The notes beneath the pieces are model-generated. The model did no database searches. It was not told the DNA's origin and was given only the letters and a program-made list of their open reading frames with translations. A stretch of 64,000 nucleotides of DNA from Candidatus Eiseniibacteriota bacterium (GTDB lineage Bacteria; Eisenbacteria; RBG-16-71-46; SZUA-252), in assembly GCA_003235575.1 (NCBI GenBank), contig QJVW01000079.1, positions 25,525 through 89,524 on the forward strand, in the 5' to 3' direction. How positions within the stretch are numbered: the first letter of the stretch is position 1; each line of letters starts with the position of its first letter. Below are positions 53,288 through 61,270 of this stretch, in pieces. The position numbers were made by a program, and so were the translations under genes.

Positions 53288-55528
53288 TCAGAACCGCTGC
53301 GCGATCCTGGCGTAGACGTTCCGGCCGGGCCGCCAGAGTCGCGATGGATCCAGGTGGCGCCGGTACGCGTCGTCGAAGACGTTTTCGATCCCGAGCGTCA
53401 CCGACGTACGGCCCCGCGACGTTCCGGTCCGCAGATTCCACACGACGAACCCGGGCGTGTTGGTCTCTCCCTGCGCCACCGCGGCGCGCGTCTGCTCCGC
53501 CGCCGCCTCCATCTCCGCCTCAACCCACGGCCACGACCCCCACGGGGTGAGGCGCGCGGAGGCCGAGCCCTCGAGCGGCGCGACGAGCGGCAGGGGACCG
53601 CCGGTCGATAGGTTCTCGCCCTCGGTGTACGAAACGGTTCCTCGTAGCCTGAGCCACGAAGCGGCGTCCGCCGCGACCGTGCCGCTCGCGCCCGTCAATC
53701 GCGCGGCGCCGATGTTGTCGTACCGGCGGACCGGCATGCCGGAGAGGGAATCTCCCGTGACGGACGTCGCAATGTATTCCTCGATCCGGTTCCGGAAGGC
53801 GGTGGCCGAAGCCTGCATCGTGCGCCCGGCGTACCCGATCGTCACCTCGGCGTTCCGGCTCGTTTCCGTCGTCAGGTCGGCGTTGCCGACGTAGACGTAT
53901 CCGTCCGGGCGCAGAAGGATGCCGAAGAGCTCGGTGGGATCCGGAATGCGATACCCGATGCCCAGGCTGCTTCGCATGTAGAGGCCGCTTGCGTGACGGG
54001 CCCGCAGGCCCACGTTGCCGCTCGCAACCGATTCGGAGGTCCGCGCGTACCCGTCGGCGCTTCGCGTGACGCGATCCAGCCGCAGGCCGGCGCTCCCGAT
54101 CAGCCATGATCTCGAACTCGTTCCGCCTTGTACGAACGCGCCGATGTCCGTGACGCGGACGCCCGGCCAGGTGCGCAGTTCCATCGTGGTCGTGGCGCCG
54201 CTCTTCGTGCGCTCCACCCAGCGCGAGCCCTCCGCGTTCCATCGCGTCGCCTCGATGCCCGCGTCGAAGGTGAACGCCGGAAGGGCATGGAAGCGCCCCT
54301 GGATCCGTCCGCCCCCGATGTCGGTCTGGGATCTGGCGTCGGTGTCGGACCGCATGGTCATTCCGCCCGGCATCGACGGTGGTTTCACCATGGACATCGT
54401 CATGTGGTGGTCCACCGACTGCACGAAGACCTTCGCGGTGAGGCCGTCCAGAACGCGCCCGCTTCGTTGCCACCCATAATCGAGGGCGTAGAGGCTTCGG
54501 TCCTCCTCGGGGATGAAGGCGTTTCCGGACCCGGGGTAGCCGATGTCGCGGCCGGCATAGTGCTGCGTCCGCAGGTCGAGCCGATGGGAGGGCGATAGGG
54601 CATAGCTGCCTGCGAGATCGACCGTGAGATCCCGGTACGACGAGGCGTCGATCGTGCCGAGCGGAGATCGCTGGTCGCCGAAACTCGCCCCGTCTACCGA
54701 GGCGGTGAAGGAAGCGCGCTGCCGGTGGCCCCAGAGCGTCGCCCCGAGCCGTCCGCCGGGAACGGCGCTGGAGGCCGACGCGCGCAGCTCTCCCTGAAGC
54801 GGAAGATCGTCGCGCGTGGCGCGCGTGACGACGTTGATCACGCCCCCCACGTTGCCGGAACCGTAGAGCGTGGAGCCGGGTCCCGACAGAAGCTCCACGC
54901 GCTCGACGTTGTCGGGCTGAATCGTGGCCAGCCCACCGTCCATCCCGACGTTGCACGCGCGTTCCACGCGGTTCCCGTCGAGCATGACGACGACACGCTC
55001 GCCCCCGAGTCCGCGGACGTACGCCTTCGCGCCCCAATTGCCGGGCCGCGACGAGGAGACGCCCTCCGCGCCGTCGAGCGCTTCGGCCAGAGACGGTGTC
55101 GCCCGGATCGAGATGTCCTCGCGGGAACGGATTCCGTAGGCGAGCTGCGATCCCTCGCCCAGCCCGCGGGATGCATCCGGCTCGGCGGTCACCTCCATGG
55201 AGTGAAGCACCACCGGTGCGCGCGTCATCCGAATCTCTCCGTGCAGATCCGCCGCGTCGATCACCAGCGAACCGTAACCGATCCGACGAAGGGTCACCGT
55301 CGTCGTGTTGGCGGGAAGCAACAGCCGGAACCGGCCGTCGCGAGCCGTCGTGACGAACCGGTCTCCCGCCGAGATCGTGACGTCCGAGAGCGGTTCCCCG
55401 GACGCGACATCGACGATCCTTCCTTCGGCCGGTCCCGATCGGGCGGCGGCGATCGCCGCGGCGGGCAGGGTGGCGACGCTCAGGATCAACGCGGCCGCGA
55501 GCCAGCCGCCAATGCATGGACGTGACAT
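53288..55528 (-). CDS. TonB-dependent receptor, OprC-like putative copper transporter
   Basis: Signal peptide, N-terminal carboxypeptidase-regulatory-like domain, plug (VELLSGPGSTLYG..GGVIN), CxxxM (CNVGM), HxM (HHM), C-terminal Phe; ATG 55528 with GGAGG SD. Confidence 0.85.
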   Translation of the reverse strand: MSRPCIGGWLAAALILSVATLPAAAIAAARSGPAEGRIVDVASGEPLSDVTISAGDRFVTTARDGRFRLLLPANTTTVTLRRIGYGSLVIDAADLHGEIRMTRAPVVLHSMEVTAEPDASRGLGEGSQLAYGIRSREDISIRATPSLAEALDGAEGVSSSRPGNWGAKAYVRGLGGERVVVMLDGNRVERACNVGMDGGLATIQPDNVERVELLSGPGSTLYGSGNVGGVINVVTRATRDDLPLQGELRASASSAVPGGRLGATLWGHRQRASFTASVDGASFGDQRSPLGTIDASSYRDLTVDLAGSYALSPSHRLDLRTQHYAGRDIGYPGSGNAFIPEEDRSLYALDYGWQRSGRVLDGLTAKVFVQSVDHHMTMSMVKPPSMPGGMTMRSDTDARSQTDIGGGRIQGRFHALPAFTFDAGIEATRWNAEGSRWVERTKSGATTTMELRTWPGVRVTDIGAFVQGGTSSRSWLIGSAGLRLDRVTRSADGYARTSESVASGNVGLRARHASGLYMRSSLGIGYRIPDPTELFGILLRPDGYVYVGNADLTTETSRNAEVTIGYAGRTMQASATAFRNRIEEYIATSVTGDSLSGMPVRRYDNIGAARLTGASGTVAADAASWLRLRGTVSYTEGENLSTGGPLPLVAPLEGSASARLTPWGSWPWVEAEMEAAAEQTRAAVAQGETNTPGFVVWNLRTGTSRGRTSVTLGIENVFDDAYRRHLDPSRLWRPGRNVYARIAQRF

Positions 55529-55536
55529 GGGGAAAT

Positions 55537-55610
55537 CCTCCGATTGTCTGCCTGTTGGCGCGGGGATGCCGTCGACCCCCGCGGCGTTCGTGCGATCAGG
55601 CGATCGGAGG
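55537..55610 (-). promoter_or_regulatory. SD-sequestering RNA structure linking the uORF 3' end and the receptor start
   Basis: In mRNA sense, CCUCCGAU (uORF Pro-Pro-Ile codons) is complementary to AUCGGAGG (receptor SD); GCCUG/CAGGC and an internal GCGGGG/CCCCGC stem also pair. Confidence 0.65.
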
Positions 55611-56030
55611 GGGACCTGTGGGGAACGGAAGCAGTCGCGGCTCGGAGGCGCGATGGGTGTCGTCGGGGCCGGGCGTCGGGGCCGCTCGGTGGAGCAAGGA
55701 CGGCGGGGCCGCGTCGGAGACGCCGATGGGCGCCACGAATTGCGCCTGGAACGAGCAGCAGTCGTCGGTGCACTGGCAGGGCCGATTCGCCGCGTCGCCG
55801 TCCTCCGGCGCGTGGCACGGGGGGGCGCCATTCGCGGAAGCGCCGCCGGTGCCGGCGGACGCGGCGCCCGTCGGCATGGAGCACGGACTGGTGCATGCGT
55901 ACGGATGGACGAGGGGGGCGGCCAGCAGCGTTACGGCGAACAGCACCGCCTGAAGCAGGGCCGCGGTGCGGCGGGGCGATGAGGCGTGGTCGGGTCTGCG
56001 TCGGTCCATGGTGCTTGCTCCCTCATCCAT
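55596..56030 (-). CDS. Cys-rich membrane-targeted upstream ORF (DUF2946/CruR-like), putative arrest peptide
   Basis: GGAGG SD; hydrophobic segment; 7 Cys (CTSPC, PCH, CQCTDDCC); ends LLPFPTGPPPIA; 67 nt upstream of the receptor start. Confidence 0.7.
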   Translation of the reverse strand: MDEGASTMDRRRPDHASSPRRTAALLQAVLFAVTLLAAPLVHPYACTSPCSMPTGAASAGTGGASANGAPPCHAPEDGDAANRPCQCTDDCCSFQAQFVAPIGVSDAAPPSLLHRAAPTPGPDDTHRASEPRLLPFPTGPPPIA

Positions 56031-56154
56031 GAGCCTACCTCCGCGTCGCGGGCGGTACGCATGGTCCGATCGTAGCCCGCGCGCGCGCCACGCAGTCCGT
56101 ACGCCCAGCGGCGACTAGCGATGGAAGGGGCAAATACGATATACTTGAAGGCTA

Positions 56155-57093
56155 ATGGCCGATCCCGCTACCCGCGGCGACGTCGGCCTCGCCGGGCCCT
56201 CCGGCAGGGCCCGCGACGTCGCCCACATCCTCCGCATCCTCAATCCCTTTGGCTACGTCCAGGTCCGCTCCAAGCGCGAGTTCATGGACAGGCTGGAGTG
56301 GGTCCTTCGGATCAGCGTGGCCCTCTGCTTCATCGGCCACGGTTTCTGGGGCACCATCTCGAAACCGGAATGGATCGGGCTGATCACGCCCATGGGCTTT
56401 TCCGAGTCGACGGCATGGGCGCTGCTTCCCTGGATCGGGTGGGCCGACGTCCTCCTCGGGGTTCTGGTCATCGCCAAACCGAGGAGCTTCCTGCTTTGGA
56501 AGGCGTTCTTATGGGCGTCGTTCACTCCGTTTCTTCGCCCGCTGGCGGGCCTGAGTTGGTTCGAGGTGCCGGAGCGGGCGGGGAATTACGGCGTGCCGCT
56601 CGCGTTCCTGCTCCTGGCCGGCGGAATGGGGCTCATGAGGACGTGGTGGAACGGGTTCGAGGTCGCCGACGAGCCGGAGACCAAACTCACGGAAGCCACG
56701 ATTCACAAAGTTCGGCTGGTGCTCCAACTATCGGTCGGCGTGCTGTTGCTGGGGCACGGCGGTCTGATGGCGATCGCTCAAAAGCCGATGTACCTCGCCC
56801 ATTTCCACGCGATCGGGTTGCCCGTCACGCAGTCGGCGATCACGCTGATCGGATGGGGGGAAATGCTGCTGGGAGCCGTCGTCGCGTTTCGACCGATGAT
56901 TCCCCTCGTCTGGTTCATCTTCTTCTGGAAGCTGGCGACGGAGTCGCTGTACGCGTTCGCGGGCAGGCCCATCGACGTCTTCGAGACCATCGAGCGCTGG
57001 GGGGACTACGGCGGGTGCATCGCGCTGCTGTTGATTCTCTACTACCTGGCGCGCCGTCCTCCGGCCGAGGAGCCCGCGCGATCCGAGGCGTAA
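56155..57093 (+). CDS. Integral membrane protein with two DoxX-like repeats
   Basis: Repeat 1 LRISVALCFIGHG...IGWADVLLG...ERAGNYG; repeat 2 LQLSVGVLLLGHG...IGWGEMLLG...ERWGDYG; start uncertain. Confidence 0.7.
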   Translation: MADPATRGDVGLAGPSGRARDVAHILRILNPFGYVQVRSKREFMDRLEWVLRISVALCFIGHGFWGTISKPEWIGLITPMGFSESTAWALLPWIGWADVLLGVLVIAKPRSFLLWKAFLWASFTPFLRPLAGLSWFEVPERAGNYGVPLAFLLLAGGMGLMRTWWNGFEVADEPETKLTEATIHKVRLVLQLSVGVLLLGHGGLMAIAQKPMYLAHFHAIGLPVTQSAITLIGWGEMLLGAVVAFRPMIPLVWFIFFWKLATESLYAFAGRPIDVFETIERWGDYGGCIALLLILYYLARRPPAEEPARSEA

Positions 57094-57094
57094 C

Positions 57095-57481
57095 CTAGCG
57101 CGATACCACCTCGACGCGGACCTTCGCCGTGCCTTCCCGCAGGAAGCCGAGCCGCCGCGCCGCCTTCTTCGATACGTCGATCACTCGCCCGCGCCGAAAC
57201 GGCCCGCGATCTGTGATCCGCAACACCACGCTCCGTCCGTTCTCCAGATTGGTCACGCGAACGCGGGTTCCGAAGGGAAGCGTGCGGTGCGCCGCCGTCA
57301 TGTTTCCCTGGTTGTACTTCTCCCCGCTCGCGGTGCGCCGGCCATGGTATTTCCCCGCATAGTAGGAAGCCACGCCCGTCTCGACGGCGGCCGTCCGCGA
57401 CGGATACCGCCCGCCCGTGGAGGCGCAACCCGTGGCCAGGACAAGGGCGAGCAGGAGGGGTGTCAGGATTCGCGTACGCAT
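57095..57481 (-). CDS. rlpA: RlpA-family lytic transglycosylase lipoprotein
   Basis: Lipobox LATGC; GVASYY, TASGE, TAAHRTLPFGTRVRVTNLENGRSV, DRGPF, IDVS. Confidence 0.92.
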   Translation of the reverse strand: MRTRILTPLLLALVLATGCASTGGRYPSRTAAVETGVASYYAGKYHGRRTASGEKYNQGNMTAAHRTLPFGTRVRVTNLENGRSVVLRITDRGPFRRGRVIDVSKKAARRLGFLREGTAKVRVEVVSR

Positions 57482-57534
57482 CTCCCCCGGAGAGATCGGC
57501 ACGCGGCCTGAAATCTGAAGCGGAATCGTCGCCG

Positions 57535-58797
57535 TCAGACGGTCTGCGGCTCCGGCTGTTTCGCCGCCTCGCGTTTCGCGCGCGGCACGCCCCGGGCGAA
57601 TCCTCCGTGCGCTTTTCGCTCCTCCAGGCGGCACGACCAGACCAGTTCGCCCTCGTGAACGGTGATGTCGGGGCAGGCGTCGCACATGTTCATGCGGCCG
57701 TCGGCGAGGATGTCCACGGGTTGGATGATCATGACCGACTGCAGGTGCAGTCGGGGAAAGGGTCGCAGCGGGCGGCGGATCGTGCCCGCGAGATACCGTG
57801 TCAGGGCCCCGCGAATACCCGGGTCGATCGGCCAGGTGGCCGCGGCGATCGAGCGCCCGTGCCGGAGCGTCGCGGGCGGCGCGTAGGCCAGAAAGCGTCC
57901 GTGACGCCAGTGATGGAGCGACTGCGCCAGCTCCATGAAGCGGGGACCCGCGTAGCCGAGGATCTCGGAATCCGTACCCACGTAGGTCGTCAGGAGCCAC
58001 TTCAAGGAATCGGCCTTCTCGGTGCCGTTCAAGTAGGCGCACGGCGCGAACTCGGGGAAACGATCGCGGATCGTCGCCACCACGTCGCGGGAAGAGATGT
58101 CGAGGCGCGTGGCGCCGGTGGGCCGGCTGTACACGAGGTCGTCCATGGCGATCCGGTCGCGCCCGACGTAGAAGTCCATCTCCTCGGCGTAGGCGCCCGA
58201 GGCCTGCCGGTAGGCGATGAAGACCACCACGTGCACCTTGTCGATGTGTCGTTGCGCCCACGCCACGATCTCCGGAGCGTACTGCAGCGTGTCCTCGTAC
58301 ACCGTGGCATTGAACGCGCACGAGATGCCCCCCACCCGGGCGACGCGCTCCGCGAACGAGAGCCGGAGTTCGTTCAGCTCGATCTCCGTCTTTCCCTTCC
58401 ATCCGGGACGCGCCTGCTTGCTGTCGATGTGGAAGGTGAATCCCATGAGGCCCGCGCCCTTCAGCGCGCGCAAAAGATCGTCGGTGAGCGCGAGCCCGTT
58501 CGTGTTGAGGATCGGCTTGTACCCGCGGGCGGCCACGCGCGAGACGATCGAAACGACGTCGGGGTGCGTCAGGGGATCGCCGCCGGCGATCGAGACTCCG
58601 TCGAACGTCCGATGGCGCGCGAAGACATCGAGTTCCTCTTCGATCTGCGCGAGGGGTTTGTGCCCCTGGTACTGATTCGCCCGATAGCAGCCCTCGCAGT
58701 AGAGATTGCAGGCCTCGGTCGGCTCGAGCCAGGCGATGGGGTTGTCGGGGAGGCTCCAGGGAAGGCGGTACAGGGTACGATGATCCGGGTAGTGCAT
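57535..58797 (-). CDS. Radical SAM protein of unknown function
   Basis: CNLYCEGC (CxxxCxxC), GGDPLTHP, NTNG; C-terminal MCDACPD...SCRLE; start taken at ATG 58797. Confidence 0.88.
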   Translation of the reverse strand: MHYPDHRTLYRLPWSLPDNPIAWLEPTEACNLYCEGCYRANQYQGHKPLAQIEEELDVFARHRTFDGVSIAGGDPLTHPDVVSIVSRVAARGYKPILNTNGLALTDDLLRALKGAGLMGFTFHIDSKQARPGWKGKTEIELNELRLSFAERVARVGGISCAFNATVYEDTLQYAPEIVAWAQRHIDKVHVVVFIAYRQASGAYAEEMDFYVGRDRIAMDDLVYSRPTGATRLDISSRDVVATIRDRFPEFAPCAYLNGTEKADSLKWLLTTYVGTDSEILGYAGPRFMELAQSLHHWRHGRFLAYAPPATLRHGRSIAAATWPIDPGIRGALTRYLAGTIRRPLRPFPRLHLQSVMIIQPVDILADGRMNMCDACPDITVHEGELVWSCRLEERKAHGGFARGVPRAKREAAKQPEPQTV

Positions 58798-59018
58798 CGT
58801 GATGGCTCCATGGGTCGCGGCGCGCTCGGCCGCGCGGCCCCGAGAGAGGGTCGATGTCAACCGTAGACCGGCATTGGCGTGCAGTATCCCGCCGCGCAAC
58901 GCGCACCGACGCCGGTACGAAAGTCGTAGATTCGGAGCCGCGTCAACGGCCCCCGGGCGATCCGTCGCGGTCATTTCACGCCGCTGCCGGATGCCCGGTA
59001 CTGCTATCGTCACACGCT

Positions 59019-59708
59019 ATGACGCCGACGATTCTCATCGTGGAAGACGATCGCCGCATCGCGGCGCTCATCGCCAAGAACCTCGAATCGGCGGGATTCG
59101 CCTGCCGGCACGCCTACGACGGGGACACGGCGCTCCGGGAGTTCGCGCACGCCGAGCCGGCGCTCATCGTGCTCGATCTCATGCTGCCCGGCGTCGGCGG
59201 GCTCGAGATCACCCGTCACATCCGCCGGGAGAGCGCCGTGCCGATCCTCATGCTGACGGCCCGATCCAGCGAAGGGGACAAGGTGCTGGGTTTCGAGGTC
59301 GGCGCGGACGACTACCTGACCAAGCCGTTCAGCACGCTCGAGTTGGTGGCCCGCGTCCGCGCCCTTCTTCGTCGCGCCGCCCCGCACGAGCAGGAGAAGG
59401 GGATCGCGGTCGACGATCTTCGCATCGATCCCGCCCGGCGGGAGGTTCTTCGCGCCGGCGCGCCGGTGGCGTTGACCACGCTCGAGTTCGACCTTCTCTA
59501 CTTCCTCGCCTCCCGTCCGGGCCGCATCTATTCGAGGGAGGCGCTCATGAACCGTGTCTGGGGCGACGGTCGCGTGGTCGATGACCGCTCCATCGACAGC
59601 CTCGTGAGCCGAGTTCGCCGCAAGTTGGAGCCGGACCCCGCGCGGCCGCGCTACATCCAGACTGTGTGGGGCGCCGGCTACCGATTCGCGGAAGGGGGCG
59701 CGCCGTGA
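59019..59708 (+). CDS. OmpR-family response regulator
   Basis: ILIVEDD, LDLMLPG, GADDYLTKPF, winged helix (LTTLEFDLL, RSIDSLVSRVRRKL, QTVWGAGY). Confidence 0.93.
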   Translation: MTPTILIVEDDRRIAALIAKNLESAGFACRHAYDGDTALREFAHAEPALIVLDLMLPGVGGLEITRHIRRESAVPILMLTARSSEGDKVLGFEVGADDYLTKPFSTLELVARVRALLRRAAPHEQEKGIAVDDLRIDPARREVLRAGAPVALTTLEFDLLYFLASRPGRIYSREALMNRVWGDGRVVDDRSIDSLVSRVRRKLEPDPARPRYIQTVWGAGYRFAEGGAP

Positions 59709-61270
59709 CGCGTCTGCGGGCGACGAGCCTCTTCTGGAAACTGACCGGATCCTTCCTCCTGGTGCTGGTGCTCGCGATCATCCTGCAGGGTGTCGTGGCG
59801 ATCATGATCATCGAGCCGATCGCCCGGCGCGCGGCCAAGCAGCGGGCGGATACACTCCTCGTCTCGACCGCGGTCGAGATCGCGGACGTGTTCGCGGCCA
59901 TCGACCCCGGGACGCGCCGCGCCCACCCGCGGAGGCTCGACGCCGAGATCGCCGCGGTCCTGCGGGCGCACCGGCTCGAGGCGGGCCCGCTAGTCCTGCA
60001 ATTCCGCCATCGCGACGGACGCGCGGTAGGGATGAGACTGGGCCCGCCCGGGTGGGGACGGGGTCCGCGCCCCGGGATGGGCCCCGGTTGGAGGCTTCGG
60101 AGAGACGGGGGTGGCGGGCCTTCGGGGGCGCCGCCGCCGGGCCGTGAATCGGCGGAAGCGTGGCCGCCCGCGTTCCCCCCCGGCGCCGACGGCGGTGACG
60201 GGACGATTCGGCCGCCGGGCGAGGCCGGGGTTCCGTTGCGGCCCCTGAGCCGCGTCGCGGTCACGGCCGGCGCGGATACGCTGGGGCATCTGGTGGCGCT
60301 GACGGGTCCACGTCGCCTCTTCTTCCTGCCGGCCGACGTGCCCGGCTCGATCTTGCTCTTCTTCCCGATCGCGATTCTTCTTGCAGGAGGCGCCGGCGTC
60401 CTGACGTTCCGGTCGCTGACGCGGCGGCTGCGAACGCTCGAATCGCTGGCCGCCCGCGTCGCCGAGGGTGACCTCGCCGCGCGCGTTCCGGCGCCGGCCG
60501 CCGACGAGATCGGTCGGCTGGGGGCGGCGCTGAACCGCATGGCCGAACGACTGGCGTCCGCGCGCGATCGCGCGACGGAGGGTGAGCGGCAGCGGGCGCA
60601 ACTCCTGGCGGACATTTCGCACGAACTGGCGACGCCGATGACTTCCATCCGCGGGTTCGCGGAGACGCTTCTCGATCCCTCCGTGTCGTTATCGGAGCAG
60701 GAGCGTCTCGAATACCTCCGCAGCGTGGTGGAGGAGGCGAAGCGGCTGGATCTTCTCATTCAGGATCTCTTCGAATTGAATCGCATGGAAGCCGGCGCCC
60801 TGCCGCTGGCATTGGAGCGGCTCGATTGGGCGGCCCTCTGCCGGAACACGATGCGACGCTTCGAGCCCCGCTTCCGCGCCGCGGGTCTCGCACTCCGCTG
60901 GGCGGGCCCCGACGACGAAGCGTGGATCACCGCCGATGGGCGACGCATGGAACAAGTCCTGGAAAATCTCTTGGTGAACGCCCTGCGGTACGTCCCCTCC
61001 GGCGGGACCGTCACGGCGGCCCTCGATGCCGGGCCCGCGGACGGGACGCTACGGCTCTCGGTCTCGGACGACGGTCCCGGCATCGCGCCGAAGGATCTGC
61101 CCCACATCTTCGAGCGCTTCTACCGGGCCGACGAGGCGCGGGCGAGCGGGGGGACCGGACTCGGTCTCGCCATCGTCCGCCAGATCGTCCTGCAGCACGG
61201 CGGCGCCGTCCGCGCGGAGACGCGCCTTCCCCACGGAACGACGTTCGTCGTCGATCTGCCTCTCGCCTGA
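59705..61270 (+). CDS. HAMP sensor histidine kinase
   Basis: Two TM segments, DEIGRLG, ISHELATPMT, NLLVNALRY, DDGPG, FERFYR, GTGLGL; GTGA overlap with the regulator. Confidence 0.92.
   Translation: MTRLRATSLFWKLTGSFLLVLVLAIILQGVVAIMIIEPIARRAAKQRADTLLVSTAVEIADVFAAIDPGTRRAHPRRLDAEIAAVLRAHRLEAGPLVLQFRHRDGRAVGMRLGPPGWGRGPRPGMGPGWRLRRDGGGGPSGAPPPGRESAEAWPPAFPPGADGGDGTIRPPGEAGVPLRPLSRVAVTAGADTLGHLVALTGPRRLFFLPADVPGSILLFFPIAILLAGGAGVLTFRSLTRRLRTLESLAARVAEGDLAARVPAPAADEIGRLGAALNRMAERLASARDRATEGERQRAQLLADISHELATPMTSIRGFAETLLDPSVSLSEQERLEYLRSVVEEAKRLDLLIQDLFELNRMEAGALPLALERLDWAALCRNTMRRFEPRFRAAGLALRWAGPDDEAWITADGRRMEQVLENLLVNALRYVPSGGTVTAALDAGPADGTLRLSVSDDGPGIAPKDLPHIFERFYRADEARASGGTGLGLAIVRQIVLQHGGAVRAETRLPHGTTFVVDLPLA

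Follow-up and report, generated by a model that had tools for sequence, protein, structure and literature searches.

The window analyzed here, a 64,000-nucleotide (nt) stretch of contig QJVW01000079.1 (assembly GCA_003235575.1, Candidatus Eiseniibacteriota bacterium), carries on its minus strand a small cysteine-rich open reading frame (ORF), hereafter the leader, followed by a gene for a TonB-dependent receptor (TBDT). The original prediction, made from the letters alone, described a 144-amino-acid (aa) ORF with its own GGAGG Shine-Dalgarno (SD) sequence, a hydrophobic segment and seven Cys, and all of these coordinates were verified (Table 1). The seven Cys are C46, C50, C72, C85, C87, C91 and C92, and the C-terminal end is RLLPFPTGPPPIA, in which three residues (PIA) separate GPP from the stop codon. 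The receptor ATG at 55528 lies exactly 67 nt past that stop; this distance agrees with what had been predicted, and Pfam recognizes Plug and barrel domains in the receptor.

The leader and its protein product

AlphaFold2, run with the 17-sequence alignment described below, found a single confident element in the leader, a helix spanning residues 19-45 with predicted local distance difference test (pLDDT) values of 84-93. Confidence was low outside this helix, and the mean pLDDT of the leader was 59.6. Together with the mean Kyte-Doolittle hydropathy of 2.27 for residues 23-41, the model fits an N-terminal helix predicted to act in export or membrane anchoring, with a largely unstructured chain behind it. 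Within that chain, C87-TDD-C91 forms a CxxxC inside a larger CxCxxxC(C) cluster.

The start of the leader is ambiguous (56007-56030, minus strand), with Met1 preceded by GGAGG and Met8, at 56009, preceded by GGGAG 8 nt upstream. Met8, rather than Met1, is the invariant Met among homologs, and the product may therefore be 137 aa long. The additional 7-residue extension, M(D/V)E(G/E)xxT, was found in only four of the seven closest sequences, namely the window ORF and three of six homologs. The 3′ third of the leader also contains a C-rich, G-poor stretch (55590-55720, minus strand), with 49-54% C and 22-27% G in 78-nt windows.

Homologs and conserved gene order

A word-indexed search returned six homologs of 45-60% identity from metagenome-assembled genomes (MAGs) labelled Gemmatimonadaceae or Acidobacteriota, and a further ten came from a profile search across 1.8 billion representatives, giving a 17-sequence alignment in which the homologs (P0002-P0017) are 27-60% identical to the leader. 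Eight positions were invariant (C85, C87, C91, L134, P135, G139, P140 and P141), defining two conserved motifs, the CxCxxxC(C) cluster and a C-terminal (R/W)LLP(F/Y)xxGPP. Conservation is highest in the final 12 residues, whereas the remainder of the C-terminal half is variable and predicted to be disordered. The position immediately 3′ to GPP varies (GPPS, GPPA, GPPV, GPPT), and the tail after GPP is three residues long in the core group, 3-5 among the homologs and 2-5 in nearly the whole family.

The distance that separates these motifs is also constrained: from the final CxCxxxC Cys to the first GPP Pro there are 47-50 residues in 129 of 132 members, and 49 in the window. The residue at the position that holds Arg in RAPP arrest motifs is T or N, rarely H, throughout the family (T138 in the window), and the sole conserved Arg lies seven residues upstream of the Gly (R/W132).

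Gene order is conserved as well. At 13 loci, all those with enough flanking sequence (loci are denoted by L numbers where they need to be told apart), the leader precedes a same-strand gene for a 745-768-aa TBDT with a CarboxypepD_reg-like N-terminal domain, across a gap of 67-95 nt and with GGAGG placed 7-8 nt before the TBDT ATG; in several of them, radical-SAM and DPBB_1 (RlpA-like) genes lie upstream of the leader. More than 130 homologous proteins, lacking Pfam annotation, share the invariant motifs. Homologs, invariant motifs and synteny thus bear out the claim that a real upstream ORF precedes the receptor, and indicate that the leader ORF is a genuine conserved gene.

Pairing of the leader tail with the receptor SD

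As had been predicted, the Pro-Pro-Ile codons at the end of the leader, CCUCCGAU, are exactly complementary over 8 nt to AUCGGAGG, which contains the receptor SD. Folding with RNAfold returned, as the minimum free energy (MFE) structure (−38.4 kcal/mol), the same fold that had been proposed, with this helix, a second helix (GCCUG/CAGGC) and an inner hairpin. From this sequence alone the hairpin does not stand out from chance: its stability corresponds to a z-score of −1.44, 16 of 200 shuffled sequences were equally stable, and the 8-mer was not over-represented (3 matches versus 4.65 expected). Given this unremarkable single-sequence fold, the case rests on comparison with related loci.

In 12 of 13 loci the MFE structure had the SD paired with the tail of the leader. 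Inner hairpins differed in number and sequence from locus to locus, and the outer helices were constant, reading CCUCC...:...GGAGG and GCCUGA(UC):(GA)UCAGGC. In fixed alignment columns the helices were paired in 82% of cells, compared with 25-45% when the columns were slid, and GCCUGA:UCAGGC, which RNAalifold predicts, was paired in 86%.

Codon choice in the tail points in the same direction. Of 321 Pro codons in the TBDT genes next to the leaders, only 7 (2.2%) are CCU; the window receptor gene has none among 34, and CCU is absent from the 17 Pro codons within the 100 codons before the GPP Gly; in the whole leader ORF it occurs once among 20 Pro codons, at Pro141. Yet all 13 loci place CCU inside GPP(P) and follow it with CC or UC, spelling the anti-SD CCUCC, although the wobble bases of the neighboring Gly and first Pro codons vary among loci. 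When the six tail codons of 11 loci were recoded synonymously 200 times per locus according to local codon usage, the native SD-tail pairing probability was 0.86-1.00 in ten of the 11 loci and was matched by at most 3% of the variants; in the window it was 1.00, compared with a mean of 0.10 among synonymous variants.

The anti-SD occurs in two codon registers 3 nt apart, starting at either the first or the second Pro, and a register-free permutation of duplexes was therefore used, in which cognate and permuted tail/SD duplex energies were compared with one representative per lineage. Only 50 of 5040 permutations (seven lineages) and 342 of 40320 (eight lineages) were as good as the cognate arrangement (p ~0.01). 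Flanking bases co-vary within each register, as in the window (CCUCCGAU:AUCGGAGG), L015 (CCUCCUGU:ACAGGAGG), L016 (CCUUCGGU:ACCGGAGG), L029 (CCUCCGG:CCGGAGG) and L007 (CCUCCGC:GCGGAGG). Taken together, these comparisons indicate that pairing of the last codons of the leader with the receptor SD is a selected feature. The outcome named in advance as fatal to the original prediction, a lack of conserved anti-SD pairing in homologs, is the opposite of what the codon, recoding and permutation tests gave.

Most loci encode the Gly of GPP with GGA, which is unusual locally, and the window with GGU (55614-55616). In several MFE structures (L013, L015, L016) this codon pairs with UCC (CC in the window, 55529-55534) between the SD and the receptor ATG, and in these models it may form a third short helix that extends SD sequestration.

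A sister subfamily and copper-related neighborhoods of relatives

A search with the family profile revealed a sister subfamily of more than 100 proteins, none with a precomputed Pfam domain, of which those with a named source are labelled Gemmatimonadota. Its members share the motifs CPMH...CxCxGxC...LLPFATGPPQRLRI, the last also written LLPFATGPPQRLR(I/S). In these leaders the anti-SD consists of the tail codons CGU CUC C, not of Pro codons, and pairs with a GGAGA(C/U)G-type SD, for example GGAGACG. That the sister leaders mask an SD with different codons suggests a general design principle of the clade, in which the leader's 3′ end hides the downstream SD.

Several relatives head genes connected with copper. 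One locus has the order leader-TBDT-CopC-CopD (L026, 3001-6405) and another the order leader-PCuAC/cytochrome c fusion-PCuAC-SCO1/SenC (L012, 2770-5162); judged by their gene content, both arrangements look like complete copper-acquisition or cytochrome-oxidase copper-delivery operons. Two more (L024 and L025) have CopCD, the leader, a gene for an uncharacterized His-rich protein and an ArsR-type regulator in that order, and further TBDT genes lie beside leaders in L020, L021 and L027.

The protein encoded downstream of sister leaders is 258-281 aa long, begins with a signal-like segment, contains a stretch rich in His and Asp (DHDHDH..LHFSHP) and gave no Pfam or NCBIfam match. Its gene has CopC/CopD upstream and an ArsR-type helix-turn-helix gene downstream, and the product may be an uncharacterized copper-related protein.

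Relation to known leader and arrest peptides

The leader had originally been likened to DUF2946-type ORFs, a link that the Pfam model did not support. Pfam and NCBIfam scans of the leader gave no match, DUF2946 (PF11162, cut-off 23.7 bits) none even at E<=10, and none of 13 other core-family members matched PF11162. Below threshold, two homologs aligned end to end with PF11162 (P0015, E 0.023, profile positions 3-117 of 117; P0017, E 0.026), 9 of 30 sister-subfamily members matched at E<=1, and the best sister score, likewise for an end-to-end alignment, reached 23.5 bits (P0022). Comparison of the core family with the sister subfamily by hhalign gave a probability of 96.5% (E 7e-10, 113 columns), and the connection with DUF2946 is thus distant and transitive. 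A tblastn search of plasmids for bona fide DUF2946 genes yielded two chance-level matches only, and an Rfam scan of 55300-56300 at E<=1 returned no family. Because of the transitive profile links, the Cys-to-Pro spacing and the copper neighbors of its relatives, our reading is that the leader belongs to a distant, Pfam-undetected branch of the CutF/CruR superfamily, outside DUF2946 as modelled; PCuAC, Sco, CopC and TBDT-type neighbors have been reported for DUF2946 genes (PMC9426467, PMC9973294). The leader also has every property of the published rule-based definition of "CutF-like" proteins, being shorter than 150 aa, with PP in the last 15 residues, a predicted N-terminal signal and a same-strand downstream gene (PMC9973294).

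CutF of Rhodobacter capsulatus (cutFOG) ends P109-EPEGPPPRL-118, without Arg (10.1101/2025.02.05.636593), and the stem-loop between cutF and cutO that shields the cutO SD is melted by a Cu-dependent stall at PPP that is sensitive to elongation factor P (EF-P) (PMC9973294; 10.1101/2025.02.05.636593). Like CutF, the leader is a small, putatively cis-acting protein with a predicted N-terminal export signal and a CxxxC about 45 residues before the Pro motif (PMC9973294), an Arg-less xGPPPxx tail at the very end (EGPPPRL in CutF, TGPPPIA here) and a downstream SD shielded in a stem-loop. The two systems differ in their targets, a multicopper oxidase for CutF and a TBDT here; in the Cys motif, CxxxC as opposed to CxCxxxCC; and in the long conserved LLP(F/Y)xx that precedes GPP in the leader. 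In addition, the CutF stem-loop is purely intergenic, whereas the anti-SD here is supplied by the Pro codons of the motif together with the stop-codon region. Moreover, the lineage here consists of Gemmatimonadota-type MAGs, which published surveys do not mention; the Pfam DUF2946 model misses the leader; and the polarity is probably opposite.

CruR (Bp2923) of Bordetella pertussis, a DUF2946 protein, controls a TBDT (PMC9426467) and arrests at two Pro codons in vitro (PMC12992588). It resembles the leader in its length (~145 aa), its position before a TonB-dependent transporter, a Pro motif three residues before the stop, family neighbors encoding PCuAC, Sco and CopC, and, in both, a 3′ stretch with C in excess of G and a predicted unstructured peptide (PMC9426467). 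With CXXC at 90-93 and RAPP at 139-142, the distance from C93 to P141 is 48 residues (PMC9426467), within the 47-50 residues from last Cys to first Pro found here. In contrast, CruR has RAPP with an essential Arg where the leader family has T/N-G-P-P, and CXXC where it has CxCxxxC(C); and CruR acts by Rho-dependent termination over a 162-nt spacer with no SD-occluding helix reported, as opposed to 67 nt and an SD-sequestering helix.

Among other arrest peptides, SecM, MifM and VemP likewise have their arrest sequence at the C-terminal end of an exported leader, close to the stop, and open an SD-sequestering stem-loop when the ribosome stalls, but they monitor export rather than metal, lack a Cys cluster, have unrelated arrest sequences and control SecA, YidC2 and SecDF. 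RAPP/RGPP peptides such as ApdA and ApdP are small secreted or membrane proteins that place two consecutive Pro in the P and A sites close to their C termini (PMC10987492, PMC12992588), and such peptides lie upstream of regulated genes that include TonB-related and Cu-related ones (PMC10987492, PMC12992588); however, their defining Arg is absent throughout the family described here. This Arg is irreplaceable in RAPP/RGPP, and AGPP and AAPP variants lose arrest (Fujiwara et al., PMC12992588). We therefore rejected the RAPP-like reading of the GPP motif put forward in the original prediction. The further suggestion that an Arg-less GPP combined with direct SD occlusion would be an undescribed variant was also abandoned, since both are already known from CutF (PMC9973294; 10.1101/2025.02.05.636593). 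The novelty lies in the lineage, in the CxCxxxC(C) cluster, in the long conserved LLP(F/Y)xx ahead of GPP and the T/N in place of Arg, in the joint occurrence of a TBDT target and SD sequestration over a short spacer, and in the use of the putative arrest-motif codons and stop region as the 5′ strand of the helices.

Proposed mechanism and alternative explanations

We consider it probable that the leader is a CutF/CruR-type cis-acting ORF that gates translation of the downstream TBDT. We infer stalling, footprint geometry, metal identity and polarity as follows. In free mRNA, CCUCCGAU of the Pro-Pro-Ile codons and GCCUG at the Ala and stop codons would pair with AUCGGAGG and CAGGC, respectively, and the receptor ribosome-binding site would therefore be closed. 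By analogy with the CruR toeprint, a ribosome translating the leader would pause with P140 at the P site and the A site occupied by P141. Relative to the presumed P-site codon, the 5′ strand begins 3 nt and finishes 16 nt downstream, distances that a normal ribosome footprint spans, and by this geometry a paused ribosome would cover about 55613-55598, the entire 5′ strand of both helices; the SD would thus be open and the receptor translated. Once the leader was finished and the ribosome gone, the helix would re-form. At the pause the thiol cluster would lie 47-50 residues from the peptidyl-transferase center, just outside the exit tunnel or in SecYEG, where it could sense copper and thereby change the duration of the pause. 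With the polarity of CruR, scarce copper would mean a long pause and receptor expression, and bound copper would bring release and shut-off; because relatives of the leader head copper-acquisition genes, we regard this polarity as considerably more probable than the reverse.

The reverse polarity, that of CutF, in which metal bound to the exported nascent chain would prolong a weak EF-P-dependent polyproline pause so that the receptor is made at high metal, is unlikely but has several observations on its side: the TGPPPIA tail is much nearer to the EGPPPRL of CutF than to RAPP (10.1101/2025.02.05.636593), the Arg that is essential for RAPP-type arrest (PMC12992588) is absent, the N-terminal export helix is conserved, and an SD-shielding stem-loop is the CutF mechanism (PMC9973294). 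Set against these are the targets of the family, uptake and acquisition genes (TBDT, CopCD, PCuAC, SCO1) that would be expected to be expressed under copper scarcity, and the LLPFx upstream of GPP, which is conserved far beyond what a plain polyproline pause needs; nor can a PPP/EF-P mechanism be general, because the third Pro is not conserved (GPPS/GPPA/GPPV/GPPT). Plain translational coupling, in which every ribosome that finishes the leader briefly melts the hairpin, receptor output follows leader output in proportion and no arrest is regulated, with the leader product a small thiol protein that functions after export, such as a metal-binding partner for the receptor, seems more doubtful still. 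It would account for the seven conserved Cys/His positions and the export helix, and since the anti-SD and stop codon lie inside the helices, termination alone would open them; yet the fixed Cys-GPP distance of 47-50 residues has no obvious meaning for a mature protein and matches the tunnel-length logic demonstrated by experiment for CruR (PMC9426467), conservation peaks in the last 12 residues rather than in the variable, predicted disordered rest of the C-terminal half, and, within cells, CruR and CutF are either degraded or not detectable (PMC9426467, PMC9973294).

We give little credence to attenuation of the CruR type, in which the paused ribosome would mainly block Rho, its release would allow termination before the receptor and the hairpin would be secondary. 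The C-rich, G-poor stretch in the leader (~55720-55590) is a feature of the kind from which the cruR rut site was inferred (PMC9426467), and a scan of the locus for a σ70 promoter and an intrinsic terminator found neither, the lack of a terminator being compatible with Rho. However, the intergenic region is strongly structured and only 67 nt long, as opposed to 162 nt in cruR, and the signals of selection are specific to SD pairing, which Rho control does not need, although both mechanisms could operate together. The possibility that GC-rich DNA has given rise to a spurious ORF and a fortuitous 8-bp complement, to which the modest fold z-score, the lack of 8-mer enrichment and the many apparently paired SDs of the window might lend color, has a negligible chance of being correct in view of more than 130 homologs with invariant motifs, conserved synteny, and the rare-codon, recoding and permutation tests; a chance origin of the ORF and hairpin was rejected on these comparative data.

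Some observations weigh against the proposed gating by leader and hairpin. Among other GGAGG-plus-start sites of long ORFs in the GC-rich window, 10 of 28 have an SD-pairing probability >=0.8. One locus (L007) is an exception to the recoding result, with a pairing probability of 0.64 that 19% of variants equal, and the rare CCU could serve partly for slow decoding instead of pairing. The check for co-variation of motif and anti-SD gave a mixed answer: the motif is conserved, flanks co-vary in their own registers and cognate duplexes beat permuted ones, but compensatory changes in fixed-column covariation and RNAalifold analyses were not above those in shuffles, in part because the anti-SD lies in two registers. 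The receptor falls below the cut-off of every NCBIfam TBDT subfamily, leaving its substrate not identifiable (the TonB-copper model TIGR01778 aligned end to end with 123 bits against a cut-off of 472), and the window operon itself has no copper gene. RNA evidence for the locus comes only from the 3′ end of the receptor gene, as a single adapter-flanked contig of 136 nt from a sediment metatranscriptome, 100% identical to 53307-53442. Finally, the GPPP tail of CutF alone gave no detectable stall in a LepB fusion (PMC9973294), and with the Arg that is irreplaceable in RAPP/RGPP missing as well, strong intrinsic arrest is not assured; the strongly conserved LLP(F/Y)xx segment could make other contacts with the tunnel, or pausing may depend on conditions.

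A broader proposal, which we put forward only tentatively as possible, is that (R/W)LLP(F/Y)xxGPP represents a new Arg-independent class of metal-responsive arrest sequence whose own Pro codons, including the rare CCU, are the anti-SD. One 8-nt element would then be both arrest site and RNA switch, and translational gating of copper-acquisition genes (TBDTs, CopCD, PCuAC/SCO1) would extend across Gemmatimonadota-type bacteria.

Implications for copper sensing and annotation

If leader-mediated gating is correct, nascent-peptide copper sensing on the CutF/CruR principle would extend to a phylum and a family missed by Pfam and by published surveys, and the RAPP Arg would be dispensable for such control. 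The locus would also be a compact model, with a 67-nt spacer and arrest codons that serve as the anti-SD, in which synonymous and compensatory mutations could separate CutF-like translational from CruR-like Rho control, and metal release from metal induction. For annotation, small Cys-rich hypothetical proteins encoded before TBDT, CopCD and PCuAC genes of Gemmatimonadota would become CutF/CruR-like leader peptides, and the receptors downstream of such leaders could be flagged as probable copper-regulated importers.

Feature coordinates, neighboring genes and occurrence of the locus

Table 1. Coordinates of features at the leader locus (window positions) and of sister-subfamily genes (positions within the locus given).
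Feature	Position	Strand	Basis
TBDT gene, 746 aa; CarboxypepD_reg-like, Plug and beta-barrel domains	53288..55528	-	Pfam
Leader ORF, 144 aa	55596..56030, stop codon included	-	read from sequence and ORF listing
Leader SD GGAGG, 7 nt 5′ of the ATG at 56030	56042-56038	-	read from sequence
Leader stop TGA	55598-55596	-	
N-terminal hydrophobic helix, residues 19-45, preceded by an Arg-rich stretch	55896..55976	-	AlphaFold2 and hydropathy
Cys cluster C85-x-C87-x-x-x-C91-C92, putative metal-binding motif	55755..55778	-	conservation
C-terminal motif R132-LLPFPTGPPP-142, putative arrest/pause sequence	55605..55637	-	conservation
Anti-SD CCUCCGAU: Pro141 (rare CCU), Pro142 and first two bases of Ile143	55603..55610	-	
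AUCGGAGG: receptor SD GGAGG (55541-55537, 8 nt before the ATG) plus 3-nt flank	55537..55544	-	
Helix 2, 5′ arm GCCUG, overlapping the final Ala codon and stop-codon bases U and G	55597..55601	-	MFE
Helix 2, 3′ arm CAGGC	55550..55554	-	MFE
Inner GC-rich intergenic hairpin; sequence and number vary among relatives	55559..55583 (about)	-	MFE
Sister leaders	L011:3001-3435, L022:1226-1682, L024:3001-3517, L025:3001-3486		
His/Asp-rich protein genes	L011:3435-4280, L022:1682-2302, L024:3517-4293, L025:3486-4328		

Sequences nearly identical to the locus were found in metagenomes from a hydrothermal vent, marine sediment and mangrove. The contigs from metagenome runs that hold the locus, in which population variation was sought, are fragmentary across 55500-55650.

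Divergent from the leader, and sharing a 124-bp upstream region with it, is a gene encoding a membrane protein of 312 aa that matches DoxX_3 weakly (56155-57093, plus strand). A DoxX_3-like neighbor adjoins the leader in L006 as well, and a DPBB_1 (RlpA-like) gene occupies that place in L001-L004. Judging by their ORF translations, the ORFs at 57095-59013 (minus strand) are ordered like the radical-SAM and RlpA-like genes found ahead of the leader in L001-L004, and an overlapping ORF pair on the opposite strand (58854-61270, plus strand) resembles an OmpR-type response regulator and a histidine kinase.

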